Shown in pieces: positions 13,020 through 56,910 of a DNA stretch of 64,000 bases (positions are counted from its first letter, which is position 1; each line of letters begins with the position of its first letter). Made by a program: the position numbers and the translations under genes. Under the pieces are notes generated by a model that worked only from the letters and a program-made list of their open reading frames with translations, searched no databases and was not told the origin of the DNA. Where the stretch lies: IMG/VR virus record IMGVR_UViG_3300035696_000035, positions 1 to 64,000 of that record; one strand, 5' to 3'. The stretch is from a virus.

Positions 13020-16000
13020 ATGGTCAAGTGCAATATGTGTCGCGGCTCGGGTTGGTACCAAGCCAACGCGAACCAACGCACCAAGTGCCCCTACTGCCAG
13101 GGTCGAGGCAGCATCGACGAGAAGGACCCAGCGCAGCAGCGTAGGGCTCGTGAGCTCGACGACTTCTACACCGGGATGAAGACCTTCGGTGATCCCACCA
13201 CCACGTTTCCTGGCGGGTACAACCCCAGCGAAGTAGAGCGGATCCTGAACGAGAAGGCGATCGAGTCCAAGGCAACGATGCGGAAGCCCGCTCCTTCGCC
13301 CGCGATGCCGATCCCGGGTCCGAGCCCGATCGACGTGGCTCTGTCTGAGGCCCGGCGCCGCAAGCAGGAGCTGTACGGCACTCGCCCAGAACCAACGATT
13401 TCGCCGACGACGCCGGTGGCACCTGAATCTAGTGTAAAGCGTCCGAAAAAAGAAGTAGGGTCTGGTCACACAACGGCGCAAGCCAAAACTCGGAGCAACG
13501 ACAACATGAGCGAAGAAGATATCCGCGGACAGCGTCGAGTGCAGGACATGATCCTGGCTCCCAACGAGTTCGCATACATCAGCGACGAGACCAAGGGCGA
13601 AGTCAACGTCTTCGTCGGTCCCAACAAGCAGAGCCTGGCCGGCACCGACCAGCTCGTCAAGTTCGACCTCAAGTCGAAGCGGTTCCAGTCGGTCACTCGG
13701 GAGCAGGGCATCCAGCTCTTCCAGACCGCACCGGAAGGGTGGTACATCGTCCTGAAGAACCCGGCCGACGGTGACAAGCACCCGACGGGCCAGGGCAAGC
13801 TCAGCACGCCAAACCTCCGGGTCGGCAAGAAGGTCAACATCCCGGGTCCGGCATCGTTCCCGCTGTGGCCTGGCCAGATGGCGAAGGTCGTCCAGGGACA
13901 CTCGCTGAAGTCGAACGAGTACCTGCTCTGCCGGGTCTACGACGAGGAAGCCGCGAAGGCCAACTACGGCAAGGCGGTCGTCAAGACGCAGGGTGAGACC
14001 TCTGCAACGCCTGCTGCCGAGGGCGAGTCCGCCAAGCGGCCGCACCGCAGCGTCGAGGCCTCGGGTCGTGCTTCCAGCGACATCCCGACGGCCAACGACC
14101 TCACGATGGGCAAGCTCTTCGTGGTCCGAGGCACCGAGGTCTCCTTCTACATCCCGCCGACCGGCATCGAGGTCGTCGCCGAGAAGGTGAATGGCGAAGA
14201 GCGCATGGTCCGTGAGGCCTGCTCGCTCGAGCGTCTCGAGTACTGCTTGCTCCTCGACCAGAACGGCAACAAGCGCTACGTCATCGGCCCGGACGTCGTG
14301 TTCCCCCGCCCGACCGAGAAGTTCGTCGAGGCTCCCATCAAGTCGAACCCGGACAAGGTGAAGGCGAAGAAGTTCCGCGCCCAGGAGCTGACCCCGACGA
14401 GCGGCATCCACATCCGTGTCATCGCGGACTACAAGGAGGCCGACGGCACTCAGCGCAAGGCTGGCGATGAGCTCTTCATCACCGGCAACGAGCAGCCGGT
14501 GTACTTCCCCCGCGAGGAGCACGCCATCATCAAGTACGGCGAGCAGGACGTCCACTACGGGATCGCGATCCCGCCTGGCGAGGCTCGTTACATCCTCAAC
14601 CGCCTCACCGGCGAAGCGAGCCTGGTCGTCGGTCCGAAGATCTTCCTCCCGGATCCCCGGACGCAGGTCATCCTCCAGCGCGCCCTTCCCCTCGACCTCT
14701 GCAGCTTGCTCTACCCGGGCAACAACGAGGCTCTCGAGGTCAACGCGGCTCGCCTCGGCGTCGAAGACGTCGACTTCATGGGTGCTGGCGGGGCCAACGC
14801 GGCCTTCCTCAACAGCAACTACGTCCGCAGCGAGACGGAGAACGAGGCCTACGGTGCCGTGGCAGCAGCCGCGACCCCCGATGTCGGCCGCGGTCGCATC
14901 CTGATCAAGGCGGCGAGCAAGGCTCTGCCGGGCGATGCCTTCGACCGCAAGGCGAAGTTCACCGCACCGCGCTCGGTCATCCTCAACACCAAGTACGACG
15001 GCGCCGTCGCCGTGACCCTCTGGACCGGGTTCGCAATGCTCCTCGTTCGCAAGAGCGGCGAGCGCCGGGTCATCCAGGGACCGGGCACCTTCATGCTCGA
15101 GTACGACGAGAGCCCGCAGGTTCTGTCGCTCTCGACGGGCAAGCCCAAGAGCACCGACAACATCCTCCGCACGGTGTACCTGCAGGTCGCCAACAACATG
15201 GTCAGCGACGTCGTCGAGGTCGAGACCAAGGACTTCTGCCGGATCAAGGTGAAGGTGTCGTACCGCGTCAACTTCGAGGGCGACAGCGACTCGTGGTTCA
15301 ACGTCGACAACTACGTCAAGTTCCTCTGCGACGCGATGCGGTCTCGCATCCGGTCCGCAGTGCAGAAGCTCGGTGTCGAGGAGTTCTACTCCAACCACAC
15401 GCCGATCCTGCGTGACATCATCCTGGGTGCCAAGCACAAGGACCAGGAGCGCCTCGGCACCACGTTCGCCGAGAACGGCATGCGGATCTACGACGCCGAG
15501 GTCCTCGGCATCGAGATGACCAACACCGACGTCGAAAAGATGTTGGTCGCTGCACAGCGGTCGGTCATCCAGAACACCCTCGTCCTGGCCGAAGAGCGGC
15601 GCAAGCTGGAGTTCGTCAAGGAGACAGAGGAGCTGAAGCGGCAGACGGAGCTGGCCCGGGCGGAAACGACCCGAGCGACCCTCGAGCTGCAGCAGGTCAA
15701 CGCCAAGCGCAAGCTGGAGCTCGACCTGACCCTGATCGCCAACAACGCCAAGCAGCAGGCCGACCAGCTCGCTGCGGAAGCGGCTGCGGAAGCAGCACGT
15801 GCGGCGAACAACATGGCCCGTGAGCAGGCGGCAGCCGAAGTGGCAGCCCTCGAGCTCCAGACGACCGAGGCCCAGCGCGCCGCAGAGCGAGAGCACCTGG
15901 CGAAGACCCAGGCCATCGAGCTCGAGAAGCTCCGGGCACAGGTCCAGGCCACGGTCGACAAGGCCAAGTCCATCGAACCGCAGTTCGTCGCGGCCCTCCA

Positions 16001-16196
16001 GGCCTTCGGCGACAAGGCACTCGTCGAGAAGCTGTCGGAGGCCATGGCTCCGCTGGCGATCATCGGCGGTGGCAAGAAGGGCGTCGCCGAGATCTTCAAC
16101 GACCTGCTGAAGGGCACCGTCCTAGGCAACACCCTGGGCACCCTCGCGGCAGGCGCCGAGAAGTCGAACGGCGCGGCCAAGACGGCACGAGCCTGA
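13020..16196 (+). CDS. major vault protein (MVP) homolog with N-terminal DnaJ-type CxxCxGxG zinc finger
   Basis: 1058 aa; repeated MVP-repeat pattern (NEFAYISDETKGEVNVFVGP; RYVIGPDVVFP; SLVVGPKIFLP); shoulder region VLSLSTGKPKS..TKDFCRIKVKVSYRVNF..VDNYVKFLCDAMRSRIRSAV aligns by eye to MVP [48 protein letters not shown]; long C-terminal Ala/Glu/Lys/Gln coiled coil = cap-helix; N-terminal CNMCRGSG..CPYCQGRG. Confidence 0.85.
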   Translation: MVKCNMCRGSGWYQANANQRTKCPYCQGRGSIDEKDPAQQRRARELDDFYTGMKTFGDPTTTFPGGYNPSEVERILNEKAIESKATMRKPAPSPAMPIPGPSPIDVALSEARRRKQELYGTRPEPTISPTTPVAPESSVKRPKKEVGSGHTTAQAKTRSNDNMSEEDIRGQRRVQDMILAPNEFAYISDETKGEVNVFVGPNKQSLAGTDQLVKFDLKSKRFQSVTREQGIQLFQTAPEGWYIVLKNPADGDKHPTGQGKLSTPNLRVGKKVNIPGPASFPLWPGQMAKVVQGHSLKSNEYLLCRVYDEEAAKANYGKAVVKTQGETSATPAAEGESAKRPHRSVEASGRASSDIPTANDLTMGKLFVVRGTEVSFYIPPTGIEVVAEKVNGEERMVREACSLERLEYCLLLDQNGNKRYVIGPDVVFPRPTEKFVEAPIKSNPDKVKAKKFRAQELTPTSGIHIRVIADYKEADGTQRKAGDELFITGNEQPVYFPREEHAIIKYGEQDVHYGIAIPPGEARYILNRLTGEASLVVGPKIFLPDPRTQVILQRALPLDLCSLLYPGNNEALEVNAARLGVEDVDFMGAGGANAAFLNSNYVRSETENEAYGAVAAAATPDVGRGRILIKAASKALPGDAFDRKAKFTAPRSVILNTKYDGAVAVTLWTGFAMLLVRKSGERRVIQGPGTFMLEYDESPQVLSLSTGKPKSTDNILRTVYLQVANNMVSDVVEVETKDFCRIKVKVSYRVNFEGDSDSWFNVDNYVKFLCDAMRSRIRSAVQKLGVEEFYSNHTPILRDIILGAKHKDQERLGTTFAENGMRIYDAEVLGIEMTNTDVEKMLVAAQRSVIQNTLVLAEERRKLEFVKETEELKRQTELARAETTRATLELQQVNAKRKLELDLTLIANNAKQQADQLAAEAAAEAARAANNMAREQAAAEVAALELQTTEAQRAAEREHLAKTQAIELEKLRAQVQATVDKAKSIEPQFVAALQAFGDKALVEKLSEAMAPLAIIGGGKKGVAEIFNDLLKGTVLGNTLGTLAAGAEKSNGAAKTARA

Positions 16197-16274
16197 TCAA
16201 CAAGCCGGAAGCCGCTGCCATCCAATCCCGGGTGGCAGCGGCTTTCGCACATCTGAAGAAAGAGAGTCCCACAA

Positions 16275-28123: not shown

Positions 28124-28927
28124 ATGGGAAGGTTGATCCTTGTAGGTGATCTGCACGGCTGCCGGCGAGAAGCCGAAGAGCTGTTGCAGAAGTGTGACGC
28201 TCGAGCCGAGGATCACGTCCTGTTCTTGGGAGACCTGGTCGATCGTGGTCCAGACAGCGCGGGCTGCGTAGACCTAGCCCTTAGGATCGAGGGGCGACAG
28301 GGGAAGCCTGCCTGCATCCTCGGCAACCACGAGGAGAAGCACCTCTTCTACGAGGACATCCGCGAACGCAAGGGCCACGTCAACGTCGACATCCCGACTC
28401 ACATCGAAACCCGCAAACAGCTGAAGCGGTACCACTACGACTATTTCCGGGCGATGCCGAAGTTCATCCGCTTCCCGGAGCACAACGTCGTCGCCGTCCA
28501 TGCTGGCGTCTTCCCGGGTCGCCCCATCGAGAAGCAAAGCGATAGGCACCTGCTCCACATCCAGAGCATCAAGCCCTGGGCTTTCAACGACCAAGGCAAG
28601 ATGGTGATGAACGAGAAGTCGTTGTGGCCCAGCCGCATCGGTCCCGGTGAAGAGGGCTGGAAGTTCTGGCACCACTTCTGGGACGGACCGGAGCGCATCG
28701 CCTTCGGGCACAGCGTCCTCAACAAGCCCCTGATCACCGACAAGGTCATCGGCATCGACGGCGGCGCGTGTTTCGGCCTGGAGCTGTGGGCCTACATCTT
28801 GCCCGACAACCAGCTCGTCAGCGTCAAGGGCAAGGGCAAGCACGACCAAGAAGACCTGGACCGTCGAGGCAACCACGACCGCAAGCTCTTCATCATTGAC
28901 GAAGAACACGGGGTCGGGACGTACTGA
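28124..28927 (+). CDS. PPP-family Ser/Thr protein phosphatase (calcineurin-like metallophosphoesterase)
   Basis: GDLHG, GDLVDRG, GNHE signature motifs. Confidence 0.8.
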   Translation: MGRLILVGDLHGCRREAEELLQKCDARAEDHVLFLGDLVDRGPDSAGCVDLALRIEGRQGKPACILGNHEEKHLFYEDIRERKGHVNVDIPTHIETRKQLKRYHYDYFRAMPKFIRFPEHNVVAVHAGVFPGRPIEKQSDRHLLHIQSIKPWAFNDQGKMVMNEKSLWPSRIGPGEEGWKFWHHFWDGPERIAFGHSVLNKPLITDKVIGIDGGACFGLELWAYILPDNQLVSVKGKGKHDQEDLDRRGNHDRKLFIIDEEHGVGTY

Positions 28928-31575: not shown

Positions 31576-31845
31576 TCAGTGACGCCAGGTCACTCGGCCC
31601 TTGGTAACGTCATAGGGTGACACCTCGATCGTTACGTTGTCTCCTGGTAGCAGCCGGATCCTGTTGATCCGCAGCTTGCCTGACAGCGTACAGACGACGG
31701 TGTTGCCCATTGTCGTCTTCACCCGGAACAGCGTTCCGGGCATTGCTTCCTCAACGCGGCCCTCGAACTCGAGGCGGTCTTCCCGTACCTCCTGCTCGGT
31801 TGTAGACCCTTGCGCCTGGTTGACCCATCTCCGTCTCTTGCTCAT
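31576..31845 (-). CDS. infA: translation initiation factor IF-1 (S1-like OB fold) with about 24-aa N-terminal extension
   Basis: EFEGRVEEAMPGTLFRVKTTMGNTVVCTLSGKLRINRIRLLPGDNVTIEVSPYDVTKGRVTWR aligns along full length to bacterial IF1 ([50 protein letters not shown]). Confidence 0.75.
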   Translation of the reverse strand: MSKRRRWVNQAQGSTTEQEVREDRLEFEGRVEEAMPGTLFRVKTTMGNTVVCTLSGKLRINRIRLLPGDNVTIEVSPYDVTKGRVTWRH

Positions 31846-32108
31846 TGTCCTCGTTGTCTTCTTCTTCTGGTCCGCCGAGTCCCGGCGGGGGTGACATCAT
31901 GCTCGCTTCGCGGTTGCTTCCACTGGAGTTGCCGCCGCTGCCACCGAAGCCGGAGCCGCCACCGTCCATGAAGAAGCCCGCTGAGTTGCGGTTGTCATCG
32001 TCGACACCGAACTCCAGCAACCGCCGGATCTCCAGCCTCAGCTCGCGCAGCGTGGTCTTCACGAGCTATATCTAGGGGCTTCTGTGATGTACAGATCTTG
32101 TCTGGACC

Positions 32109-32498
32109 ATGGCGAAACAGCGGAAACATGTGTACGTTCCCATCCCGTGTAAGGGATGTAGACAAGAGTTCACTCCCAAGGCTTCGTGCCAGAAGTTCTG
32201 CGTCATATGCATCCCCAACAAGAAGGCTCAGGGGCGTCGCCAGATCTACGGCCTCACGCAGCCTGAGTTTGAGAGGATGTTGCAAGAGCAAGACGGGAAG
32301 TGCTTCTTTTGCAGACGCGATTTCGCCGCAATGTTCAACGGCAAGTTTTCTCCGATCTGCGTTGACCATGACCATCAGACGAACCGCGTACGAGGTTTGC
32401 TGTGTCGGAAGTGTAACATGCTCTTGGGCTGGTTGGAGCTGTGCCCTCCCGGCATCCTGCGAAAGATCGAGAGCTACCTCAGTCATCCGTGTATCTGA
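32109..32498 (+). CDS. endonuclease VII-like (HNH-type) nuclease
   Basis: VDHDHQTNRVRGLLCRKCNMLLG core; CxxC pairs at N-terminus. Confidence 0.7.
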   Translation: MAKQRKHVYVPIPCKGCRQEFTPKASCQKFCVICIPNKKAQGRRQIYGLTQPEFERMLQEQDGKCFFCRRDFAAMFNGKFSPICVDHDHQTNRVRGLLCRKCNMLLGWLELCPPGILRKIESYLSHPCI

Positions 32499-32892
32499 CT
32501 CGGGTGCCTTCTGGACCCGTCGACAGCGACCCAAAGCACATCAGTGACGTCGAGTGGTCAATGGCCCATCCGGCGGAGATCTCGTAGCTGCCCGTCATCA
32601 CGTACTCGAGGGTCTGGCCATGGTCGATCGGGACCACCCAGACGTTGGCCTTGGGCAACCCCTCGGCCATCTGGGTTTCCCAATCGATCTCACGGATGTA
32701 GCCGTCGCCAGTGATGAAGACGATGTCCCCGCTTGGGTGACGCCCCGACGCAAAGATCAGGTCGGCGCGGTTGTCGGCCTTCCTAGCTTCTTCCAGCTCA
32801 CGTGGTGCCAAGAGCCTCATGTACTCCGGCAGCTCGATCGTGACTGGCCCCTCGGCATGGATGCTAGCGTGGGGGTCGAGGGTCAGTTCCAT
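32479..32892 (-). CDS. hypothetical protein
   Basis: 137-aa ORF. Confidence 0.4.
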   Translation of the reverse strand: MELTLDPHASIHAEGPVTIELPEYMRLLAPRELEEARKADNRADLIFASGRHPSGDIVFITGDGYIREIDWETQMAEGLPKANVWVVPIDHGQTLEYVMTGSYEISAGWAIDHSTSLMCFGSLSTGPEGTRVRYTDD

Positions 32893-39594: not shown

Positions 39595-40031
39595 CCCTTG
39601 GCCGGATGGAGTTGGGCCAGTTCGCGGAGGACATCGACGGCCTGCTGCTCGAACTGGCCGACGATCTGTGCTGCCACGTACGCCTTTCGGTACAGCCACA
39701 GCGCCCTGATCAGCTGGGTCCCGATGACGATCGCGAGAGCGAACCAGCCGCTGGCACCGCAGAGCCAGGCAACCAGCGACAGCACCGACGCGCTGATGAC
39801 GCCGCCCGTTGCAGTGCCCCAGGCGTTGCGTCGCAACAGGTGGGAGTGGTAGACGTCACGGTAGAGTGCCAAGGCCAGGCCGAAGCTCGCCGCTTCCTCC
39901 TCTTTCACCTGGTGCCAGTCGACCTTGCTGGCCTCGTCAGTCATCAGGGTGTCAACGTCAACGTCGACATCCGCAGACTGGATCGTCACTTCACTGCTGT
40001 CCATTGTCTTGCTCCTTGCTGGGCTCGTCAT
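39591..40031 (-). CDS. membrane protein
   Basis: Two predicted TM helices (VISASVLSLVAWLCGASGWFALAIVIG). Confidence 0.4.
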   Translation of the reverse strand: MTSPARSKTMDSSEVTIQSADVDVDVDTLMTDEASKVDWHQVKEEEAASFGLALALYRDVYHSHLLRRNAWGTATGGVISASVLSLVAWLCGASGWFALAIVIGTQLIRALWLYRKAYVAAQIVGQFEQQAVDVLRELAQLHPAKG

Positions 40032-41631
40032 AGACGACCGCGTCGAGTGACAGGAACGTCGTTGCCACGCTGGCGGCGTGCTTGAGGGCTGACCGGGTCA
40101 CCTTGACCGGGTCGATGACTCCAGCCTGGACCAGGTCCTCGTACTCCCCCGTTGCCGCGTTGTACCCGCGGCTGTCGGAGCGCTCACCCCGTTCGAGCTC
40201 AGCAACGACGACGTCAGCGCTGGTGCCTGCGTTCTGGACGATGCGCTGGAGGGGCGACAAGCACGCCTTGAACACAGCCGTCGCTCCATGGACCTCGTCG
40301 GGGTCGACACCCTCGGCCTTGCCGACGGCGCTGCGGACCTTGGTCACTGCGTTGAACAACGCCATGCCACCGCCCGGGACCAGGCCCTCTTCGGTTGCTG
40401 CCTTCGTTGCGTTGAGAGCGTCCTCGATGCGGAACTTCCGCTCCTGCATCTCGATCTCGGTGGCACCACCGACGCGGATCACTGCGACGCCGTTGGCCAG
40501 CTTCGCTGCCCGCATCCGGAGCTTCGTCAGCTCGTCTTGAGCCAGGGTCACGTCAGTGGCCTGGACACGTAGCTGTTCCACGTGCTGGGCGACCTTCTCC
40601 TTGGTTGCGCCCCCAGCGACGATGGTCGTCACCTTGGCGTCCGACGTCAGCTTCCTGACCTGGCCCAGGTGGGTGCCCTGGATGTCCTTCAGGCTTAGTC
40701 CCGTCGCGCTGGAGATGAGCGTGGCCCCTGTCAGCACGCAGATGTCCTGCAGCAGCTCCTGACGGTGCTGGCCGTAGCCCGGTGCCTTGACGGCGACGAC
40801 GGGCAGCTTGCCCTGGGCCCGGTTGATGACGAGGCCCGTCATGGCGTCACCCTCGAAGTCTTCAGCGATGATCAGCAGCGGCCGCCGTGCCTGGGCCACC
40901 TTCTCGAGGGCAGGCACGATGTCAGCGAAGGAGGACAGCTTCTTGTCGGTGACCAGCACCAGAGCTTCCTCGTAGACAGCCCGCATCCGCTCCGGGTCGG
41001 TGATGAAGTACGGGCTGACGTAGCCCCTGTCGATCTGCATGCCCTCGACGACCTCCATCGAGGTCGACATGCCCTTGGCATCTTCGACGGTGATGATCCC
41101 GTCACGTCCCACCCGCTCCATGGCATCGGCGATCAGCTTGCCGATGACAGCATCACCGTTCGCTGAGATGGTGCCGACCTGGGCGACTTCCTCTGAGGTC
41201 TGGACAGCCTTGGCCGATCGCTTGAGCTCCTCGAGGACCAACTCCACAGTGGTGTTGATGCCCCTGCACACTGCCAGCGGGCTCATCCCCGCCTCGACCA
41301 GCTTCATGCCCTCGCGGACCAGCGCCTGGGTCAGGACGCTGGCGGTCGTGGTGCCGTCACCAGCGACGTCGTTGGTCTGGCTGGCTGCCTCACGGACCAG
41401 GTCTGCCCCCATCCTTTCGACTGGATCACGGAGCTTGATCGACTTGGACACCGTCACCCCGTCCTTGGTGACCAAGGGTGCCTGCCCCTGTCGCTGGATC
41501 AGCACCGTCTTGCCCTTCGGGCCGAGGGTGCATCCGATGGCGTCAGAAGCCTTGTCGAGGCCTGACAGGAGCTGCTTGCGAGCTTCGCTGCTGAAGATGA
41601 TCTGTGTCGTGGATTCGCCGGGCATGTTCAT
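39991..41631 (-). CDS. groEL: chaperonin GroEL (Cpn60)
   Basis: 546 aa; TLGPKGKTV, GDGTTTA, VEGMQIDRGY, AVKAPGYG, GGG(MALFNAV) hallmark motifs; full-length colinear with GroEL. Confidence 0.9.
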   Translation of the reverse strand: MNMPGESTTQIIFSSEARKQLLSGLDKASDAIGCTLGPKGKTVLIQRQGQAPLVTKDGVTVSKSIKLRDPVERMGADLVREAASQTNDVAGDGTTTASVLTQALVREGMKLVEAGMSPLAVCRGINTTVELVLEELKRSAKAVQTSEEVAQVGTISANGDAVIGKLIADAMERVGRDGIITVEDAKGMSTSMEVVEGMQIDRGYVSPYFITDPERMRAVYEEALVLVTDKKLSSFADIVPALEKVAQARRPLLIIAEDFEGDAMTGLVINRAQGKLPVVAVKAPGYGQHRQELLQDICVLTGATLISSATGLSLKDIQGTHLGQVRKLTSDAKVTTIVAGGATKEKVAQHVEQLRVQATDVTLAQDELTKLRMRAAKLANGVAVIRVGGATEIEMQERKFRIEDALNATKAATEEGLVPGGGMALFNAVTKVRSAVGKAEGVDPDEVHGATAVFKACLSPLQRIVQNAGTSADVVVAELERGERSDSRGYNAATGEYEDLVQAGVIDPVKVTRSALKHAASVATTFLSLDAVVYDEPSKEQDNGQQ

Positions 41632-41664
41632 GCCCCGATCCTACACCCGACTGGGGACGCTGTT

Positions 41665-41949
41665 TCAGCCCTCTTTGGTGACCTTGATGTAGACCGGCTG
41701 ACCACGGCGCCATGCAATGGCGATGTTTCCATCCTTGTAGTCCTGGATCATCGCCATGAGGACCAGCTTCTGCTGGCTGTCGTGGGTCTTGCTGGCGTAG
41801 CGGAGCAGCTTTTTCTCAGTGAAGTCGACAACGTTACGACAGACGTTGCCACCGTGCAGCTGGAACTCCGTGCAGCGTTCTTTCCGCTCAGGCAGGTTGG
41901 CAGCATTCCGCGTAGCCATGTCAGGAGTAAGTAGGCCTCGCGAGCTCAT
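41665..41949 (-). CDS. hypothetical protein (not GroES-like)
   Basis: 94-aa ORF immediately upstream of groEL on same strand. Confidence 0.4.
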   Translation of the reverse strand: MSSRGLLTPDMATRNAANLPERKERCTEFQLHGGNVCRNVVDFTEKKLLRYASKTHDSQQKLVLMAMIQDYKDGNIAIAWRRGQPVYIKVTKEG

Positions 41950-41985
41950 GTCAACACCAGCTTGTCACCGAGCCCAAATGACAAC

Positions 41986-42004
41986 GCGCCGGTCTTCCCG
42001 GCGC
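41986..42004 (-). terminator. short GC hairpin between AAA and groEL-upstream gene
   Basis: GCGCCGG-TCTTC-CCGGCGC perfect 7-bp stem. Confidence 0.25.
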
Positions 42005-42267
42005 GTGTCAAGGGATCATGTGGGTTGTTCTTCGTCAGGCTAGGTGGTGAGTTCTCCAAGCGATCCATGATGTTGCCATCGTACTCTTAAGTACGGCCGA
42101 GCGTCACCGTTTACGCTTCGTCAACTGCTTCTTCAGCTGCAGCTTGGCTTGCTTGCGGCGTTTCTTGAGGGCCTTCTTGACGCCCTTCCAGACCTTTGCC
42201 TCATTCATCGGGACGGGTGTGGTGTCCTTCACCGCGTCCTTGACGAACTTCTTGAGGTCGGACTCCT

Positions 42268-43806
42268 TCAGCTCCCGGAGTCCTCCTCCCCCTCCTCCGG
42301 ATCTAAAGGGTCGTCGTCTTCGACGTCGTCCTCCTCTCCTAGCGGAAGTCCCATCTCACGTTGGAAGGTGTCGATGGCATCCTTCAGCTGGTCGGGGGTG
42401 ATCTCGCTCTCATCTCCCTGGTCTGCGGGTGGGGAAGCTTCGCCTGGGACCGTGGTATTTACCGCGGCGTTTACCTTTGCGGCCCGACCGATGAGCGACC
42501 ACATCCGGGCCATGCCGTCGTCGTCCTCGTCACGGTACTTGCTGAGGCCCTTCACCCGCTTCGCCAGCTCCTTGACGCTCTCGGCGGCTTCCTCAGGGCT
42601 GAGGTAGGTCCGTCTGACGACGTACTCATGGATGAAGGCGATGGGCCAGTCCTTGACGTAGTCGTAGCCGTCGTTGTACTCGCCCAGTACGTGGCGGACC
42701 ACTTCCTCGTCCAGGGTGTCGACCAGCTCAATCTCATCGATGCGGCCTGGACGTTGCAGGGCATCGTCCAGCTTCCGTCGGTTGTTGACGGTGATGATGA
42801 CCAGCTTCACCTTCTCTTGGAAGTACTCCAACGTCTCCAGCAGCTGTGCCTGGTGGTGGGTGCGATCGAAGTCATCCAAGATGACCGCATCAGGTTGGAA
42901 GATGTTCAGCGCCTCGAACAGGGTGGAGTTGTCGAGCTGGCCGAGGTCAGCGATGCGGATGCGGAACGACCTGAACCCCATCAGCTCGACGATCGTCCGT
43001 GCCATCGTCGACTTGCCGGTGCCGGGTGGCCCGTAGAACATCACGGTGCGGGGCACCCCCGCGGCGATGGGCTTCTTGAGGTACCGAGCGTACTCGGTGG
43101 CCCGCTTGGACTGCTTGCTCTCGAAGGCATCGTCCTGCTCGAAGATGACCCGAGCCTCGTTCTCCTTGAGGATGAGGCGGTTGTTCTTCCGCATCACCAA
43201 GCTCTTGCCCTGGAACTGTTCCCACAGGAGCTGCTTGATGTAGTCCTTGGCCTCCTGCATCCGCTCGGTCTCGACGTAGATGTTGTCGACCGTCTGCAGG
43301 CGTCCGGTGTAGGTCCAGCCGACCTTGAGGCCATTGGGCAGGGTGCAGACCCGGATGAAGGTGTTGTCTTCCGATGTCTTGATCCTCTCGTATGGGAACT
43401 TCTGGAGCACGTGGAGCAGGGTCTGGGTGAAGTCCTGGCTGTAGGGCTCCGTCCATTCGTCTCCGGCGAAGTAGTCCTCGCTGTAGACCTCGACGTCTTC
43501 GATCATGGTCTTGCCCATGGCGAAGGCTGCCTTGCCCGCCGTCCACCATGAGGGCTTGTCCAAGAACGGCGTCGCCGCGTTGAACAGCTCGGTGCCCAGG
43601 GCAAACGCGCGCTTGACCTTGCTGATGCTGAGGAAGCGCCTGATCTCTTCGATCAGGGGCATGTCCTTCACCACCTTCAGCAGGTCCTCGTCGTCGGGAG
43701 CCATCAGCCCGCCCTTCTTTCCCATGTCTTCCTCTTTGTCTTCGGTGACTTCGACGTCAAGAGCATCAATGAACTCGTCTGCTACGTCTTCCCACTTGGT
43801 CGTCAT
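42268..43806 (-). CDS. AAA+ ATPase (paralog of 18622..19902) with acidic C-terminal tail
   Basis: Trimmed to MTTKWEDVADEF (ATGA overlap with 43803..44498); Walker A GPPGTGKST, Walker B VILDDFD, LQRPGRIDEI; tail EEDDVEDDDPLDPEEGEEDSGS. Confidence 0.75.
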   Translation of the reverse strand: MTTKWEDVADEFIDALDVEVTEDKEEDMGKKGGLMAPDDEDLLKVVKDMPLIEEIRRFLSISKVKRAFALGTELFNAATPFLDKPSWWTAGKAAFAMGKTMIEDVEVYSEDYFAGDEWTEPYSQDFTQTLLHVLQKFPYERIKTSEDNTFIRVCTLPNGLKVGWTYTGRLQTVDNIYVETERMQEAKDYIKQLLWEQFQGKSLVMRKNNRLILKENEARVIFEQDDAFESKQSKRATEYARYLKKPIAAGVPRTVMFYGPPGTGKSTMARTIVELMGFRSFRIRIADLGQLDNSTLFEALNIFQPDAVILDDFDRTHHQAQLLETLEYFQEKVKLVIITVNNRRKLDDALQRPGRIDEIELVDTLDEEVVRHVLGEYNDGYDYVKDWPIAFIHEYVVRRTYLSPEEAAESVKELAKRVKGLSKYRDEDDDGMARMWSLIGRAAKVNAAVNTTVPGEASPPADQGDESEITPDQLKDAIDTFQREMGLPLGEEDDVEDDDPLDPEEGEEDSGS

Positions 43807-44498
43807 GCACACAGGTCCTTCGCCAGTTTTCCCTCTTTCTCCAACGTCATGTTCGCATTGAGCTCCCAGTGGAGTGGGATGAGCTTCAACCTCTTGGCGG
43901 CATGGACCAACGTCCGAGCATGGTAGTACAACACTCGGGCTTCTGGCATCACGCCCGGCGGTCGCTTGATCTTGAGGAACCGCTTCTTTGCGTCTTTGAC
44001 GATCCACCACGGACCGGTGTGCTCCTCTCGCTGGTAGCCTTCTTGCAGGTACTGGTCGACAGCAACACGGAGCTCCTCAGGTACCCGCTTCCAGGTGTCC
44101 TCGTTCTTGACGCAGAGGACGATGTAGTTGATGTAGTCCTTCCACGCCTTGATCTGACGTTCCCATTCCCGTTCGGGGTCAGCGTAGAAGCCAACGCATG
44201 ACTCAGTGAAGACCTTGGGCCCACAGACGATGCCGATCTCGATCTCCTCCGGGAAGGGCTGCCCGCCAGCGTCTACGTTGCCAACCTTGGCCGAGTCCTC
44301 GTGCGACTCGTTCTTGAGGTGCAGCACGTGCCTGATGGGTCGACCACAGCAAGCACACTTGCTCTTGCCGTAGTGGAAACCGCAGATGATCCACGAGCCC
44401 GCAGCAATGAGGGGCTTGAAGTTCTTGCCGTAGGCTTTGACGTGCCTATCGTCACTGGCCCGCTCGATGACGTCAGTCTGTTGGGTCTGGTATCGCAC
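43803..44498 (-). CDS. hypothetical Cys-rich protein
   Basis: 231-aa ORF; CGFHYGKSKCACCG cluster. Confidence 0.4.
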   Translation of the reverse strand: MRYQTQQTDVIERASDDRHVKAYGKNFKPLIAAGSWIICGFHYGKSKCACCGRPIRHVLHLKNESHEDSAKVGNVDAGGQPFPEEIEIGIVCGPKVFTESCVGFYADPEREWERQIKAWKDYINYIVLCVKNEDTWKRVPEELRVAVDQYLQEGYQREEHTGPWWIVKDAKKRFLKIKRPPGVMPEARVLYYHARTLVHAAKRLKLIPLHWELNANMTLEKEGKLAKDLCA

Positions 44499-44679
44499 TG
44501 GTCAGCCTCCTTGTGGGAACATGAGCGCTGACTGTCACAGTGGTGACCCCATCGGGCCCGGAGAGCTTTGCAGCCTCCATGAGGAGTCGCATCAAGTTCA
44601 TCATGGTTGAGCGCACGTCGCGGCCGCCGACCTTGACAGTCGTCGTCTTCACGCAATCGAACTTTTCTGGAGTGCTCAA
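44473..44679 (-). CDS. hypothetical protein
   Basis: 68-aa ORF, ATGA-coupled to NRDE gene. Confidence 0.35.
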   Translation of the reverse strand: MSTPEKFDCVKTTTVKVGGRDVRSTMMNLMRLLMEAAKLSGPDGVTTVTVSAHVPTRRLTSAIPDPTD

Positions 44680-45500
44680 CCGATGACCTCGATGTCTTCG
44701 TCCTTCAGCTCAATGGGCTCCAAGTCACTGAAGTCCAGATGCAGCAAGCGCCCCGCTAGTGTCAACGGCGTGTGTTGGCATGCAGGGCCCTCCTTGTACC
44801 AGTACTCCACAACCCCTTGATTGGACACGGTGACCAGGCTGGTGCTCCTTGTCCCGAAGGCAAACTCGTCAGCATGGACGCACAGGGCCTGGAACGGGTC
44901 GTCCTTCGCCTTCCTGTTTGAGAAGTGAGAGGCCAGCGTGACGAGCAGTCGTGTCTTGACTTCCTCGAACGGGACGGGAGGGTCATCGATGAGGCTCTCT
45001 GTCATCCGCTTGGCCCAGTCGGTCTTCTCGGCGTACCTGGTACCCCAACAGTCGTTGCTGATGACGTTGATGCCTTTGGGCATGGGCAACATCTCGATGT
45101 GGTTGCCTGGCAACACTCGGGTCAGGAACATCGCACCGGGCCTGCCAAAGACCAGGTTGAAGGGGTTGTAGTCTTCAGGGTCGATGGATGCCAGCACTCG
45201 AGCGGCAATGGTGTGGTTGCCCGCTCCGAGCACCCGGAGGACGACGTCGCCCCGAGACTTCTTGTGTTCGTCGTGGTGTTGGTCGTCCTGATTGGTGATG
45301 CCAACGAACCACCCCGTCTGGTCAACGCCCATCCAAGTGCCACCACGTTCGTCATCGTGGGGCATGATGAGGCTGATCAGGTTGGCCTTCTGTGTCACGT
45401 CAGGTGGGCGTGACTTGCGGTCGTACCTCTCGTCGCGGTTAGCGGCGACGATTAGTGGGTACCCCTCCACCTGCTCGTTGAGGATGATGAGCGTGCACAC
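44676..45500 (-). CDS. NRDE-family protein (TANGO2/DUF833-like, N-terminal Cys)
   Basis: MCTLIIL..PLIVAANRDERYDR matches NRDE-family N-terminus. Confidence 0.7.
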   Translation of the reverse strand: MCTLIILNEQVEGYPLIVAANRDERYDRKSRPPDVTQKANLISLIMPHDDERGGTWMGVDQTGWFVGITNQDDQHHDEHKKSRGDVVLRVLGAGNHTIAARVLASIDPEDYNPFNLVFGRPGAMFLTRVLPGNHIEMLPMPKGINVISNDCWGTRYAEKTDWAKRMTESLIDDPPVPFEEVKTRLLVTLASHFSNRKAKDDPFQALCVHADEFAFGTRSTSLVTVSNQGVVEYWYKEGPACQHTPLTLAGRLLHLDFSDLEPIELKDEDIEVIG

Positions 45501-45503
45501 CGC

Positions 45504-46088
45504 TCACCTGTCGTCGTCTTCTTCGTCCTCATCCTCGTCGTCGTCGCTCTCCTCGTACTCATCGTTGGGAGTGAAGACGGGAGCGTCAGCTCCCGGGTGG
45601 AGCTGGATCTCGCACCAGACCAGCTGCCCGTCGGAGATGATGAAGTGAGAGGTCTTGTAGTTGTTGATGTCTTCACCGTCGTCATTGACCTCCCCGTAGG
45701 TGACGCTTCCCTCGGCCTGGCCGCGGAGGAGCGGGACCACCTTGTTGACGAAGATCGGGAAGAAGGTGTTGGCCGCGGTCTCGTCGTAGCCGCTGTCATC
45801 GTCGTGCCAGTCGAGGCAGTTGATCTCCAGGCCGGCCACCGACTTCTTGACAACCTTGGCACCGCACTCTCGACAGAACTTGGCGTTACCGTAGCTGGTG
45901 GTGCCGCAGGCACACTTGACCTTCTCTTTGGTCTGCGAGTTGATCTTGTCCTCCAGCTCACGGAGGAAGCAGTTCTCGGGAAGGTCCCCGTCGTACTTGT
46001 CGAGGAGCTTCTTGGCATCGCGCGGGTCGATGTTGAGGGTTGAACGCTCAGGCCTCAGGAACGTGACGCTGTCGATTCGAGTGCTCAT
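45504..46088 (-). CDS. hypothetical zinc-ribbon protein with poly-acidic tail
   Basis: CACG..x..CRECG ribbon; C-terminal EESDDDEDEDEEDDD. Confidence 0.4.
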   Translation of the reverse strand: MSTRIDSVTFLRPERSTLNIDPRDAKKLLDKYDGDLPENCFLRELEDKINSQTKEKVKCACGTTSYGNAKFCRECGAKVVKKSVAGLEINCLDWHDDDSGYDETAANTFFPIFVNKVVPLLRGQAEGSVTYGEVNDDGEDINNYKTSHFIISDGQLVWCEIQLHPGADAPVFTPNDEYEESDDDEDEDEEDDDR

Positions 46089-46999
46089 ATCGGTGCCTCC
46101 ATCAATCTCTTGCCCAAGTCCTTCAAGAACTCGGGCCCGTACTTCAGGTTGCCTGTTGCCTCGAGGTCTCGCTCGAGGAAGTCAGGCAGGACTTCGTCCT
46201 GGCACCGTGCCGAGGCGATGCCCCAGGCGATCGCGGCGACGCTGTCAGTGTCCCCGCCCCACTCGATGACCTGTCGCATGATGCCCATCAGGGTCGGTTG
46301 GGTCGTCAACAAGGTATGCACCGCCCATGCAGTGTTCATGCCCACATCCCACGGTGAGTGCTTGGCTTTGCCGGTCACCGGGCCCACCCAGGGCTCACGG
46401 AAGCGCTCGAAGGCCGGGAGCTGGTTGGCCAACCACCCGGTCATGCTGGGGAAGTCTCGACGGTCATAGAGGGCAAAGTGTGACATCAGGGCCACAGCCA
46501 CCGAGGCAGTCACGCCCTCGTAGGTCGCATGGGTGGTGCCCGCCTGGCGCATCGCCATCATCTTGACCCACTCCGGGTCGGCGATGGTGCCGAGTGGCAC
46601 GCTCCGCATCGCCGCACCGTTCTTGGTCGAGTCGGGCTTCAGGGTCAGCCGCAGCTCGTCGCCGGACTTGACTGACTCGAGGATCGCCTGGAAGTTGCGG
46701 GAGTATCCATCACGGGGATCACGCTTGAAGGCGTTGAACCAAGCCTCGATGAAGTCCTCGTGCTTAGCGCTCCTACCCTTGGCCAACAGCACTTCGGTCA
46801 ACGCGATCGACATCTGGGTGTCGTCGGTGTACATGCCGGGCCGGAGCTTAGTGTGGGTCGGGTGCTGCAGGTACTGTTCGAATCGGCGAGCCCACTCGTA
46901 GAGGCCTGGGTTCTCTGCTTCCTTGACGTACTCGACGCACGCGGCGTAGGCGTCGCCCTGCGCGATACGGAGCAGCATCAAGTCGTTGCGGTGTCTCAC
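46085..46999 (-). CDS. ADP-ribosylglycohydrolase family protein (DraG/ARH-like)
   Basis: N-terminal GDAYAA, YTDDTQMS, C-terminal GGDTDSVAAIAWGIASA motifs. Confidence 0.7.
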   Translation of the reverse strand: MRHRNDLMLLRIAQGDAYAACVEYVKEAENPGLYEWARRFEQYLQHPTHTKLRPGMYTDDTQMSIALTEVLLAKGRSAKHEDFIEAWFNAFKRDPRDGYSRNFQAILESVKSGDELRLTLKPDSTKNGAAMRSVPLGTIADPEWVKMMAMRQAGTTHATYEGVTASVAVALMSHFALYDRRDFPSMTGWLANQLPAFERFREPWVGPVTGKAKHSPWDVGMNTAWAVHTLLTTQPTLMGIMRQVIEWGGDTDSVAAIAWGIASARCQDEVLPDFLERDLEATGNLKYGPEFLKDLGKRLMEAPI

Positions 47000-55346: not shown

Positions 55347-55669
55347 CGGTCATACACCCTGAGGTCATGGAACCTCGTATCGAGTAGGTTGTACATCGTC
55401 TGCTTTGCAGTCAGGACGTTGCCGCGGTAGCGTCTAACGATGCCGGGCCACCGCTTCTGCACGAACCGAGTGACGATGGCCCTGTCCCTGGGAGACACTC
55501 GGCCTCCCAAGTCCTCGAACCACTCCTCGGCGAGCTTTCTGCCCGCCTCATCACCGGGCTGCTCATGGCCCTGCAGGCTGGTTCCCTTCAACAGCTTCAT
55601 CATGTGAGGGTCGACACGTAGCTCTGCCAGGGTCTCCTGGATGAATTGGCGGAGGACGTCTTCGTTCAT
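55343..55669 (-). CDS. hypothetical protein
   Basis: 108-aa ORF directly downstream of endolysin. Confidence 0.4.
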   Translation of the reverse strand: MNEDVLRQFIQETLAELRVDPHMMKLLKGTSLQGHEQPGDEAGRKLAEEWFEDLGGRVSPRDRAIVTRFVQKRWPGIVRRYRGNVLTAKQTMYNLLDTRFHDLRVYDR

Positions 55670-56910
55670 GACCTGGGCTTCAACAGGAACTTGACCAGCG
55701 CGACAATGGCGTTGATGATAGACTGCAGGGCACTGCCCCCAGCCGGCGCGGGTACAGGAGAGGGCGGCGTGGGGGCCGGAACAGGCGGCACCGGAGCGGG
55801 GGGCGGGTTGACGGGAGGCGGCTGGTCCAACGCCAGGACTGGGATGCCCAGCTTGTTGGGGTCAAGCCACTCGATCAGGGGACGGCCCAGGCTCGATAGC
55901 ACCGGACCGGTGCCCTGGGTGATCGCGTTGTTGGCGCGGCCACCGCCGCCGTGGTCAGCGTTCCCAGACGCGTCAACGGGACCCAGCAACCACTCAACGT
56001 GGTCGTCGTTGGTGCCCGGAGTGTTGTAGTGCATCAGCGCGCCGACAGGCGGGTTCTGGCCCTTGACGTACTTGGTCAGGGCACCGGTGTTGATGCCGAT
56101 CTGGCGGACCCAGGCGATGGCCATGCCCGACACGTAGGGCTTGTTGAGGAGCGGGTCACGGACTCCAGCAGCCGCCATGATGCCAAGAGCTGACGTGGCA
56201 CAGTTGGTTGAGATGGTCACGACTGACTCTGGGTTGTCGACCCCGCGGCCGACCAGGTTACCCAGGTCGGTGCGACGGTTGGTGAGGCTGCAACCCACGT
56301 AGGACTTGACAAGCCTGACGATCCTGTCAGCGGGCTTCTCACCCGGAACCAGCGGCTGCTGAGCAACGGGCACGTTGGAAGCCTCGGGAGCCGGGTGCAC
56401 CACGGGAGGAGGAACGGGGACCGGAGCTGGCGCGGGTGGGGGTGCTACGGGCTGCGTTGAACCCGCTGGCGTCAGGAACAACGCTCGTTCGGCCTGGCGT
56501 CGCTTGAGCAGGCCCTCATCGACCGTCAGCACGCCGTTGATCGTTGTCTTGTCCCACAGCAGCAACGCGTCAGCCGCGCCCTGGATGTCTCCGGTGTTGA
56601 GCTTGGTCCGGCACGACGACTGTTCCAGCGCGCCGCCCCCACAGTTGAACGTGAATGACACCAGAGCGTCAAACATGTTCTGCGTCATCGAGTGGGTGAT
56701 GTACTCGTTGACGGCGTTCTCAGCAGTACCGACATCGCCCGCTAGCAGGGCCAGGGCCTGTGCATGAGTGATGCCGTTGGGGAACGACTCGCCAGGTCTG
56801 ACCACGTGTCCGATGCCGATCGTGGGGATGCCTGCAACGTCCTTGTAAACGTGATCGACTTCACCTTCCCACGAGGCGATGAAGTTCAGGCCGTTCTGAG
56901 ACGTCTTCAT
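55666..56910 (-). CDS. endolysin: GH24 lysozyme domain plus Pro-rich linkers and a C-terminal Cys-containing domain
   Basis: N-terminal GLNFIASWEGEV..GIPTIGIGH (T4/lambda-type lysozyme); PPPAPAPVPVPPP linker; C-terminal domain with conserved Cys/His; second Pro-rich tail. Confidence 0.75.
   Translation of the reverse strand: MKTSQNGLNFIASWEGEVDHVYKDVAGIPTIGIGHVVRPGESFPNGITHAQALALLAGDVGTAENAVNEYITHSMTQNMFDALVSFTFNCGGGALEQSSCRTKLNTGDIQGAADALLLWDKTTINGVLTVDEGLLKRRQAERALFLTPAGSTQPVAPPPAPAPVPVPPPVVHPAPEASNVPVAQQPLVPGEKPADRIVRLVKSYVGCSLTNRRTDLGNLVGRGVDNPESVVTISTNCATSALGIMAAAGVRDPLLNKPYVSGMAIAWVRQIGINTGALTKYVKGQNPPVGALMHYNTPGTNDDHVEWLLGPVDASGNADHGGGGRANNAITQGTGPVLSSLGRPLIEWLDPNKLGIPVLALDQPPPVNPPPAPVPPVPAPTPPSPVPAPAGGSALQSIINAIVALVKFLLKPRS

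Follow-up and report, generated by a model that had tools for sequence, protein, structure and literature searches.

The DNA analysed here is a 64,000-nucleotide stretch of a virus genome (positions 1 to 64,000 of IMG/VR record IMGVR_UViG_3300035696_000035; hereafter the window). Our subject is a gene within it coding for a bacterial-type translation initiation factor IF-1 (infA) with an N-terminal tail, together with an unannotated small open reading frame (sORF) that overlaps its start in another frame. The window is 61% GC and contains ~107 short and closely packed genes, most of them without a family match. The features of the locus, all on the minus strand, are as follows.

31576..31845, minus strand: IF-1 (infA-type) coding sequence, 89 aa plus stop, supported by profile searches, PDB matches, and AlphaFold2 (AF2) and Foldseek
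31786..31845, minus strand: N-terminal tail of IF-1, residues 1-20, MSKRRRWVNQAQGSTTEQEV; predicted to be disordered, with a basic N-terminal half and an acidic/polar C-terminal half
31579..31785, minus strand: OB-fold core of IF-1, residues 21-89; supported by a predicted local distance difference test score (pLDDT) >90, superposition, and the ratio of nonsynonymous to synonymous substitution rates (dN/dS)
31751..32062, minus strand: unannotated sORF, 103 aa, GTG start; a conserved +2-frame open reading frame upstream of IF-1
31751..31845, minus strand: out-of-frame overlap of 95 nt, coding for IF-1 residues 1-32 and the sORF C-terminus (NEQETEMGQPGARVYNRAGG...)
31849..31852, minus strand: GAGG resembling a Shine-Dalgarno (SD) element, at -7 to -4 of the IF-1 ATG and within the sORF acidic codons GAC GAG GAC
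32069..32074, minus strand: -10-like hexamer TAGATA, 6 nt upstream of the sORF GTG; a candidate promoter

A bacterial-type IF-1 with an N-terminal tail

The IF-1 open reading frame (ORF) starts with an ATG at 31845 and ends with a TGA at 31576-31578, and its translated product is MSKRRRWVNQAQGSTTEQEVREDRLEFEGRVEEAMPGTLFRVKTTMGNTVVCTLSGKLRINRIRLLPGDNVTIEVSPYDVTKGRVTWRH. By both sequence and fold it is a bona fide bacterial-type IF-1. Residues 26-88 match the Pfam family PF01176 (eIF-1a/IF-1) with 74.1 bits against a cut-off of 30.2, and residues 21-89 match positions 1-69 of the 69 in the NCBIfam equivalog TIGR00008 (infA) with 85.1 bits against a cut-off of 61.15. All 12 matches among PDB sequences are bacterial IF-1s, and they align to residues 21/22 to 88/89 only; these alignments, from which residue correspondences to solved IF-1s are taken, pair R21 of the phage protein with residue 2 of E. 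coli IF-1 (chain 1AH9). An earlier, sequence-only reading of the locus had aligned the ORF to IF1 along the whole OB fold and proposed a Pfam search as a check, with an S1 or cold-shock family as the outcome that would count against it. The profile and PDB matches uphold that alignment, the Pfam search returns eIF-1a/IF-1 above cut-off, and IF-1 is preferred to an S1/cold-shock assignment since the NCBIfam match is to the infA equivalog and no S1 or cold-shock domain family is matched in Pfam at E<=1. The sub-threshold Pfam extras are limited to RsgA_N and the proteasomal OB domain. Assignment to the eukaryotic and archaeal factors fails: NCBIfam models of eIF-1A/aIF1A score 13-18 bits against cut-offs of 91-202 (e.g. 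TIGR00523, 15.3 bits, cut-off 102.9; NF003084, 18.1 bits, cut-off 91), and the phage protein stops at the end of the OB fold, lacking the C-terminal helical domain and acidic tail of eIF1A. At 89 aa it departs from the compact IF-1 format of ~70-75 aa with an M-[AS]-K-[ED] start, but the extra length is a variant architecture and does not contradict IF-1 homology.

An AF2 model built from 59 homologs contains strands at residues 25-34, 40-44, 49-54, 70-75 and 82-88 and a helix at 56-60, with pLDDT >90 in the OB barrel from residue 25 on. In Foldseek the first 14 ranks are all bacterial IF-1s (root-mean-square deviation (rmsd) 0.7-2.4 Å), and 4ql5, 9fco_I and 1hr0_W, the last two being 30S-bound chains, superpose on the core with rmsd 0.7-1.0 Å and template modelling (TM) scores, normalised on the target, of 0.90-0.94. 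Nine positions are invariant among the 59 homologs (G56, R59, I63, D69, Y78, D79, G83, R84 and R88) and four are nearly so (K57, N61, R64 and P77). The phage protein has both the G-K-x-R-x-N-x-I-R loop and the C-terminal G-R-x-x-x-R; from work on the E. coli and T. thermophilus factors we take the loop and the C-terminal Arg to be involved in 30S binding. Lineage-specific substitutions occur at three conserved sites (K to R at 21, A to T at 38, and Y/F to W at 87). Pairwise comparison of the core with close relatives by the NG86 method gives dN of 0.04-0.10 and dS of at least 1.06, and a dN/dS of ~0.04-0.1 indicates strong purifying selection. By homology, we predict that the core is a working IF-1 that binds the A site of the 30S subunit.

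The sequence-only reading also described about 24 extra basic residues ahead of the fold. The extension is real, although it is 18-20 residues long and basic in its first half only (K3 R4 R5 R6), the second half (TTEQEV) being polar and acidic. AF2 gives residues 1-20 a pLDDT of 45-49, and the tail has no counterpart in solved IF-1 structures among the PDB sequence matches. It is not an artefact of start-codon choice, because no further ATG, GTG or TTG separates M1 from the OB fold, the frame is closed by a stop 18 codons ahead of the ATG, and the ATG is kept in all 21 related loci.

The distribution of such tails was surveyed by extracting IF-1 ORFs from 165 loci and measuring the shortest possible extension, as set by the nearest upstream start codon. 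The canonical start, M-[AS]-K-[EQ] immediately at the fold, is present in 77 of the 80 bacterial loci, including all Gemmatimonadaceae matches, and in the majority of viral IF-1s as well. An unavoidable Lys/Arg-rich extension of 11-40 residues is found in the nearest viral loci (L005-L016, L020, L023, L035 and L086). Tails of 59 family members have a median length of 19 residues and a net charge of +3.4 in the N-terminal half and -2.2 in the C-terminal half; at least three Lys or Arg lie within the first 10 tail residues in 51 of them, and hydrophobic residues are nearly lacking. Both the length and the basic-then-acidic pattern are maintained over genomes of 34-67% GC. The tailed gene lies just downstream of a conserved module of an AAA ATPase, a 94-aa protein and GroEL (see below) in ~20 loci covering the same GC range, and the 18-20 residue disordered tail, linked to this module, appears to be a new marker of a single phage lineage.

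Extended forms also occur elsewhere. The gp4 product of the cultured and unrelated Bacteroides phage DAC19 (L170, MT074139.1, 627-932), annotated as 'hypothetical protein', is an IF-1 homolog of 101 aa with a basic Q/S/N-rich tail of ~34 residues, and the same type of gene is present in related DAC/SJC phages. Among cellular sequences, infA of a Myxococcaceae metagenome-assembled genome (MAG; L110, CAYUSB010000024.1) has a 14-residue basic N-extension (MARKRHARSEPREPK...) and that of a Patescibacteria MAG (L115, JBDRCJ010000080.1) a 10-residue one; both are flanked by rpmJ/rpsM(/rpsK) and are thus truly cellular. An N-extended IF-1 was also noted in Ca. Uhrbacteria (P0076). These sequences indicate that N-extended IF-1 arises in some bacteria too, independently of the phage clade.

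A small gene across the IF-1 start

Over the 19 tail codons, comparison with the nearest relatives in the IF-1 frame (pairwise NG86) gives dN of 0.32-0.77 and dS of only 0.15-0.39. Synonymous sites are thus more conserved in the tail than in the core, from which a second constraint was suspected; the +2 frame was read, and the sORF was found. It is present in that frame ahead of IF-1 in 19 of 21 related loci spanning 34-67% GC, beginning ~210 nt upstream of the IF-1 ATG and terminating within the IF-1 gene, with an overlap that ranges from 20 to 101 nt among the lineage. Its product is recognisable by the motifs M[RK]ITL..LR..IREFGVDD..R..AGFFM.GG, PPPGLG, an acidic run and EQEK.QPGARV.DR.GG, and outside the overlap its dN/dS is 0.14-0.19 (0.122/0.835 to 0.187/0.977). 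AF2 predicts a helix at residues 5-18 only and disorder in the remainder, including an acidic tail, with a mean pLDDT of 57.

A hidden Markov model of the sORF has matches always at the start of IF-1 and beside tailed IF-1s only; it finds none in the other viral loci fetched (L021-L085, except the tailed L023) or in 79 bacterial loci. Among 1.84 billion representative proteins, a word search recovers 7 clusters and an exhaustive profile search 58, none of which carries any annotation. All but one of the 58 are standalone proteins of 42-99 aa; the exception, P0088 (187 aa), was considered as a natural sORF-IF-1 fusion and rejected, being a read-through of a lost stop in the sORF frame. The sORF belongs to no Pfam family and is absent from deposited phage genomes, and gene finders left it uncalled on every contig inspected (L001, L005, L167 and L168). 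An initial tblastn synteny run also failed to show it, presumably through low-complexity masking.

In all 21 loci the IF-1 ATG is made from sORF codons of the form xAT-GAx within an acidic stretch, and the purine-rich DNA that follows reads E-Q-E-(Q-E)-K-G in the sORF frame and, one base later, S-K-(N-K)-R-R-G in the IF-1 frame. Each frame has independent evidence of coding at the sequence level: conservation, motifs and dN/dS for the sORF, and family membership, the lack of an alternative start and the kept ATG for IF-1. This indicates that the stretch specifying the IF-1 tail doubles, in a second frame, as coding sequence for the C-terminal end of a conserved and unannotated small protein. 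This dual-coded extension, unseen in the sequence-only reading, is the more unusual feature of the locus.

Codon-position composition bears on both frames. In GC-rich relatives the GC content of sORF third positions (GC3) is 0.35-0.45 within the overlap, down from 0.57-0.79 in the rest of the gene, while IF-1-frame third positions there stay at 0.68-0.91; the overlap therefore bears the codon-position signature of the IF-1 frame, and the wobble sites of the sORF are not free. Our reading is that both frames are probably expressed, the sORF C-terminus being kept in sequence and the IF-1 tail in character, which suggests a constraint on the tail at the level of composition that keeps it hydrophilic and basic.

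The GAGG ahead of IF-1 is present in the GC-rich members (the window, L166, L168, L005, L006 and L086) and missing from AT-rich relatives. RNA folding finds the IF-1 start region to be less structured than shuffled sequences (z = +1.1), and an occluded start, as in classical translational coupling, was accordingly rejected. The sORF is preceded by no Shine-Dalgarno sequence. In ~15 related loci its start codon follows a TAnnTA hexamer at a distance of 4-6 nt, and in the window TAGATA with its 6-nt spacer agrees with the motif published for leaderless genes (TANNNT ~12 bp before the start codon), a signature frequent among Actinobacteria, Deinococcus-Thermus and some delta-proteobacteria (PMC3160421). 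From its sequence, the sORF appears to head a leaderless transcript.

This layout recurs in the window. TAnnnT and TAnnTA are positionally enriched window-wide at spacers of 5-6 nt, with TAnnnT spiking at the 6-nt spacer (10 genes against ~0.5 expected per position), and a -10-like hexamer of either form ends 5-9 nt before the start in 24 of 107 genes; an SD-like motif is present at 35 of the 107. This degenerate positional analysis took the place of an exact test of the 11-mer upstream of the sORF, CCTATGTAGAT, which gave 5 matches where 3.9 were expected and was dropped as a candidate general promoter of the phage. The leaderless-like genes include those for GroEL (39991-41631), a vault-like protein (13020) and lysozyme (55666-56910), and those at 28124, 35778 and 62220. 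About a quarter of the window genes would thus be leaderless-like, which hints at a host from a phylum rich in leaderless genes.

Phage context and neighbouring genes

The following features lie elsewhere in the window.

13020-19902, plus strand: vault cluster of a 1058-aa MVP-like protein, a 640-aa SPFH/Band-7 protein and a 426-aa AAA ATPase
20520..21263, plus strand: type I methionine aminopeptidase (Map); TIGR00500, 277 bits (cut-off 171), and PF00557
32109..32498, plus strand: endonuclease VII gene, PF02945 on the identical contig L001; divergent, between the sORF and the 137-aa neighbour
32479-32892: conserved 137-aa neighbour, with a homolog directly upstream of sORF/IF-1 in L005, L167 and L168
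33119-36569 and 52615-53865: sugar-nucleotide/glycosylation island
39991..44010, minus strand: AAA ATPase - 94-aa protein - GroEL module, identified by Pfam/NCBIfam and synteny, with the AAA ATPase (580 aa) at 42268-44010, the 94-aa protein at 41665-41949 and GroEL at 39991-41631
44676-46999, minus strand: TANGO2-family protein (98.6 bits) and ADP-ribosylglycohydrolase (115.5 bits), with a 194-aa ORF between them

The sequence-only reading took the element to be viral and not a host chromosome, and we concur; this identity is based on gene content, synteny and the classification of relatives. Recognisable genes include those for a phage lysozyme, endonuclease VII, a FEN-type exonuclease, Fpg, a NUDIX protein and two AAA ATPases, several proteins match PHROG-only families, and the syntenic relatives are viral. 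The window contains no rRNA or ribosomal-protein genes, a tRNA scan finds no tRNA genes, and there are no Rfam matches. The 20 kb around IF-1 have no nucleotide match in 50,697 phage records.

The IF-1 protein has 76 close metagenome homologs, several of them on contigs of 324-370 kb, and the longest contig bearing the identical protein is 72 kb. Collinearity with the window over at least 20 kb is seen in L005 (369.5 kb; 369,506 bp) and in L167 (63.6 kb, from forest soil), and IMG/VR contigs of up to 340 kb (340,433 bp) share the IF-1 neighbourhood. The curated huge phages LR756500/501/503 encode homologs of both the vault-like protein and GroEL. The marks of a huge-phage translation repertoire, namely a genome of >200 kb and further protein-biogenesis genes, are found in the syntenic relatives and in Map and GroEL. 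We assign the window to a large, and probably huge, soil phage.

Synteny of the module with IF-1 extends over L005-L020, L023, L035, L086 and L167. GroEL itself is assigned by TIGR02348 (645 bits, cut-off 582). The 94-aa protein is always ahead of the phage GroEL; it has no Cpn10/GroES or other match in Pfam or NCBIfam and was rejected as a recognisable GroES, although it might be a divergent co-chaperonin. The Map gene is conserved in L005 and L167.

Gemmatimonadaceae were considered as donor or host and rejected, their IF-1s being canonical and 50-55% identical to the phage protein; the many matches to this family arise from the 8-mer patterns used in the genome scan. Ribosomal-protein neighbours were likewise dropped as a test for chromosomal infA, as only 5 of the 80 bacterial loci have them.

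The endonuclease VII gene next to the sORF is not at the equivalent position in L005, L167 or L168, which suggests that it is mobile (homing-type). It has a paralog in the window at 23501-23869 (plus strand), and both have Cys-rich N-termini and DHDH..N..RGLLC motifs.

The 1058-aa protein of the vault cluster matches the MVP shoulder (100.7 bits) and Vault repeats. It is the best-conserved large protein of the lineage, with 60-66% identity in L006, L007, L011 and L012, and is 42% identical to its LR756500/501/503 homologs. To our knowledge, no function has been described in phages for cage proteins of the vault-like or SPFH type. The sugar island, which separates GroEL from IF-1 in the window and in L005 and is missing from more distant relatives, codes for three GT2-family glycosyltransferases, a UDP-galactopyranose mutase and a UDPGP-family uridylyltransferase. 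Like the endonuclease VII gene it has been inserted near IF-1 in the window, and it may modify the cell surface or the DNA. The TANGO2-family and ADP-ribosylglycohydrolase genes are kept in several relatives and might counter ADP-ribosylation-based defence. A set of paralogs (22374-23296, plus strand, in the window; 16521-17120 in L167; 16381-16989 in L005) shares the motif W[VT][KT]H..G.G[IM][LV]VA...V[TL]VLWS..PR ... P[ML].P.G.VFY.DYTYG; their ~200-aa relatives match Pfam Gp23, the T4 major capsid family, and are too short to be the capsid protein. Positions 1-2000 differ in composition, with 67% GC against ~61% elsewhere and a strongly negative AT skew.

Interpretation and comparison with known systems

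The best overall explanation, which we hold with fair confidence, is that the gene specifies a functional, phage-encoded IF-1 of bacterial type whose tail is dual-coded with the sORF. The sORF and IF-1 would form one bicistronic unit, transcribed from the -10-like hexamer 6 nt before the sORF start, with a leaderless first cistron. IF-1 would be translated by internal initiation or re-initiation at the unstructured purine-rich site, and its initiation is probably coupled to translation of the sORF. The protein would then occupy the 30S A site as host IF-1 does, supplementing or replacing the host factor in infection, and, cooperating by homology with IF2 and IF3, would sustain or bias initiation, with the Map and GroEL of the phage working beside it. 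The likeliest origin of the tail is movement of the IF-1 start upstream into the neighbouring gene (overprinting), and the basicity of the tail would derive largely from acidic GAR/CAR codons read one base out of frame.

Several observations weigh against parts of this reading. A sigma-70 consensus scan around the gene gave no promoter, and no intrinsic terminator was found either; the 11-mer ahead of the sORF, searched exactly, shows no enrichment in the window; and no capsid or terminase gene is present within the 64 kb. In a neighbour-joining tree of the 68-residue core the tailed sequences of this lineage cluster together, but the bootstrap of the tailed clade is 27/100, a weakness expected of a core of 68 residues, so that common descent of the tailed IF-1s rests mainly on synteny. 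(The E. coli row, used as a tip of this tree and as a visual reference in the alignment, carries 3 spurious C-terminal residues.) The low sORF GC3 in the overlap could also result from selection for an unstructured, A-rich initiation region. The remaining points concern the tail. Its sequence evolves fast, with an omega (dN/dS) of ~0.9-2.7 when read as IF-1 and of ~0.33-0.36 when read as the sORF, from which the sORF C-terminus is the better-conserved reading of the overlap; and L019, in which the sORF is gone, has a tail of only 7 aa, while a second ATG in L017 and L018 would leave one of 3 aa and is a possible bypass, both of which argue that the tail is dispensable.

These last points belong equally to the strongest alternative, on which the evidence leaves us evenly divided: that the tail is a neutral passenger of an IF-1 start that moved into the upstream gene, with tight coupling as the outcome and no role for the tail at the ribosome. 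An omega of ~1 or higher in the tail frame against ~0.35 in that of the sORF, the predicted disorder, the shortening on loss of the sORF and the possible bypass start all fit this, as do the exact frame relation between E-Q-E-K-G and S-K-R-R-G and the fact that start-codon replacement inside an adjacent gene is known (PMC3887535). Set against it are the persistence of tail length and of the basic-then-acidic pattern across 34-67% GC, the resistance of sORF third positions in the overlap to genomic GC3 bias, and the independent recurrence of basic N-tails in DAC19 gp4, cellular IF-1s and e/aIF1A. Furthermore L035 has kept a KR-rich tail although its sORF is absent, which argues for a function of the tail. 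Together with DAC19 gp4, the cellular extended infA genes, the eIF1A tail and the extensions of phage ribosomal protein S21 (rpS21), L035 suggests by analogy that a basic tail can matter. That the tail of this IF-1 makes a specific contact with the ribosome or mRNA, in the manner of the eIF1A N-terminal tail or the rpS21 extensions, is an idea we put forward tentatively, leaning somewhat against it. It is distinctly improbable that the sORF protein and the tailed IF-1 constitute a two-part, phage-specific initiation module that works on the host small subunit and biases start-site choice towards the many leaderless or SD-less phage mRNAs; under such an arrangement the basic IF-1 tail would play the part of the eIF1A N-terminal tail and the acidic, disordered sORF protein, at the same low likelihood, that of an eIF1A C-tail supplied in trans, and the overlap would enforce co-expression.

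An unlikely alternative is that the protein is an IF-1-derived antagonist or specialised factor, either an A-site blocker of host initiation or one that, possibly with the sORF protein, favours leaderless mRNAs. The lineage-specific R21, T38 and W87, the extra tail, the obligate genetic pairing with a conserved small acidic protein and the leaderless-type layout of about a quarter of the window genes would suit such a factor, but the core is a full-length, above-threshold infA equivalog that keeps the ribosome-binding loop and the C-terminal Arg, and its predicted structure is indistinguishable from IF-1.

We also considered that IF-1, instead of starting at its own ATG, is produced as a fusion with the sORF by programmed +1 ribosomal frameshifting in the overlap. 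Since the sORF frame trails that of IF-1 by one base, a +1 slip anywhere in the 95 nt would join both, and the GAGG lies 3 nt before the junction, a spacing that presumably resembles that of the stimulatory SD in prfB. Yet every one of the 21 loci keeps the ATG, which a fusion does not need; no conserved position bears a slippery sequence or a stop-codon pause motif; AT-rich relatives lack the SD-like element; and P0088, the one long protein among the database matches, results from read-through in the sORF frame. Together these points make frameshifting very improbable. Hardly credible is a bacterial chromosome or plasmid with this ORF as the host infA. In its favour, bacteria ordinarily have IF-1, Map and GroEL as essential genes, no capsid or terminase gene was identified in the 64 kb, and binning placed the relative L086 in a Bdellovibrionota MAG. 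But L086 bears the same phage module; the window is dense with small ORFans, has endonuclease VII, phage lysozyme and PHROG-only families and lacks tRNA, rRNA and ribosomal-protein genes; the relatives that share its synteny comprise IMG/VR viral contigs as well as contigs 340-370 kb long; and cellular IF-1s are without the phage-type tail and the sORF.

The novelty of the locus does not lie in the presence of the factor. The sequence-only reading stated that phage-encoded IF1 had been reported only rarely, which is contradicted by several sources. Many huge phages carry IF1 and IF3 (Al-Shayeb et al. 2020, PMC7162821), soil huge phages carry such initiation factors too (PMC11748809), and 'Translation initiation factor 1A' is a core gene of the Jug phages (PMC12880540). 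The cultured Sinorhizobium phage Phosso has an annotated canonical IF-1 of 72 aa, the protein of the window matches PHROG 30201, a family of phage IF-1, and in a single scan IF-1 relatives turned up on at least 558 IMG/VR contigs. That huge phages can encode IF-1 is already known, and the bare finding adds one member. What appears to be new, relative to the literature searched and the family libraries, is a lineage-wide tailed IF-1, its tail overprinted on a conserved unannotated small gene, in a genome whose gene layout is of leaderless type; the same literature yielded no description of an N-terminal extension of IF-1 or of such an overlap.

A charged, disordered IF-1 tail in an environmentally widespread and deep phage lineage parallels the rpS21 extensions and the eIF1A tail. 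The locus also illustrates how genuine, conserved phage genes lie concealed in long same-strand overlaps, even beside well-known ones, and are discarded by standard gene callers. The proportion of leaderless-like genes in the window, about a quarter, offers a concrete and testable reason for a phage to carry an initiation factor, and if the tail or the sORF protein does alter start-site choice, this would be a compact system for viral retuning of bacterial initiation.

In comparison with bacterial IF-1 (1AH9, 1HR0 and 9FCO), the phage protein has the same OB barrel, made of five strands with a short helix joining the third and fourth, the same G-K-[LM]-R-x-N-x-I-R loop and C-terminal G-R-[IV]-x-[WYF]-R, and a core ~46-54% identical to cellular IF-1s; it differs in being phage-borne, in its 18-20 residue disordered tail, in the out-of-frame 5' overlap, and in R21, T38 and W87. 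With the IF-1s of huge and jumbo phages (Lak, Jug and Phosso) it shares a large genome with further protein-synthesis genes, and tblastn identity to it is 45-48% for Lak phages, LR756511 and Phosso. Those huge-phage IF-1s that were checked are canonical in length, however, and the Lak and LR756511 proteins align from residue 21 only. DAC19 gp4 and its relatives (MT074137-MT074146) likewise have a long basic Q/S/N-rich tail before the OB fold, but identity to the protein of the window is only 31-35%, the gp4 tail is ~34 aa, the genome context is different, and no sORF homolog was seen at the gp4 locus.

An unstructured basic N-tail on an A-site OB-fold factor is also a feature of eIF1A/aIF1A, whose cores are superposable on that of the phage protein (Foldseek ranks 15-30). 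In yeast, basic residues of the eIF1A N-terminal tail touch initiator tRNA (tRNAi), mRNA and 18S rRNA and tune start-site selection (PMC5756025). The phage core is nevertheless bacterial in type and has neither the C-terminal helical domain nor the acidic C-tail, and the likeness is one of analogy. Basic N-extensions are also borne by huge-phage rpS21 (PMC7162821).

At the level of gene arrangement, same-strand overlaps are known to arise when a start codon is relocated into the neighbouring gene (PMC3887535). The sORF/IF-1 pair resembles overprinted same-strand pairs in general (PMC3887535, PMC5810103) in having an inner start, a disordered N-terminal segment of biased composition and an annotation that drops one of the partners. 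It differs in combining a long overlap of 20-101 nt with retention through a deep phage lineage, and in involving a universal translation factor.

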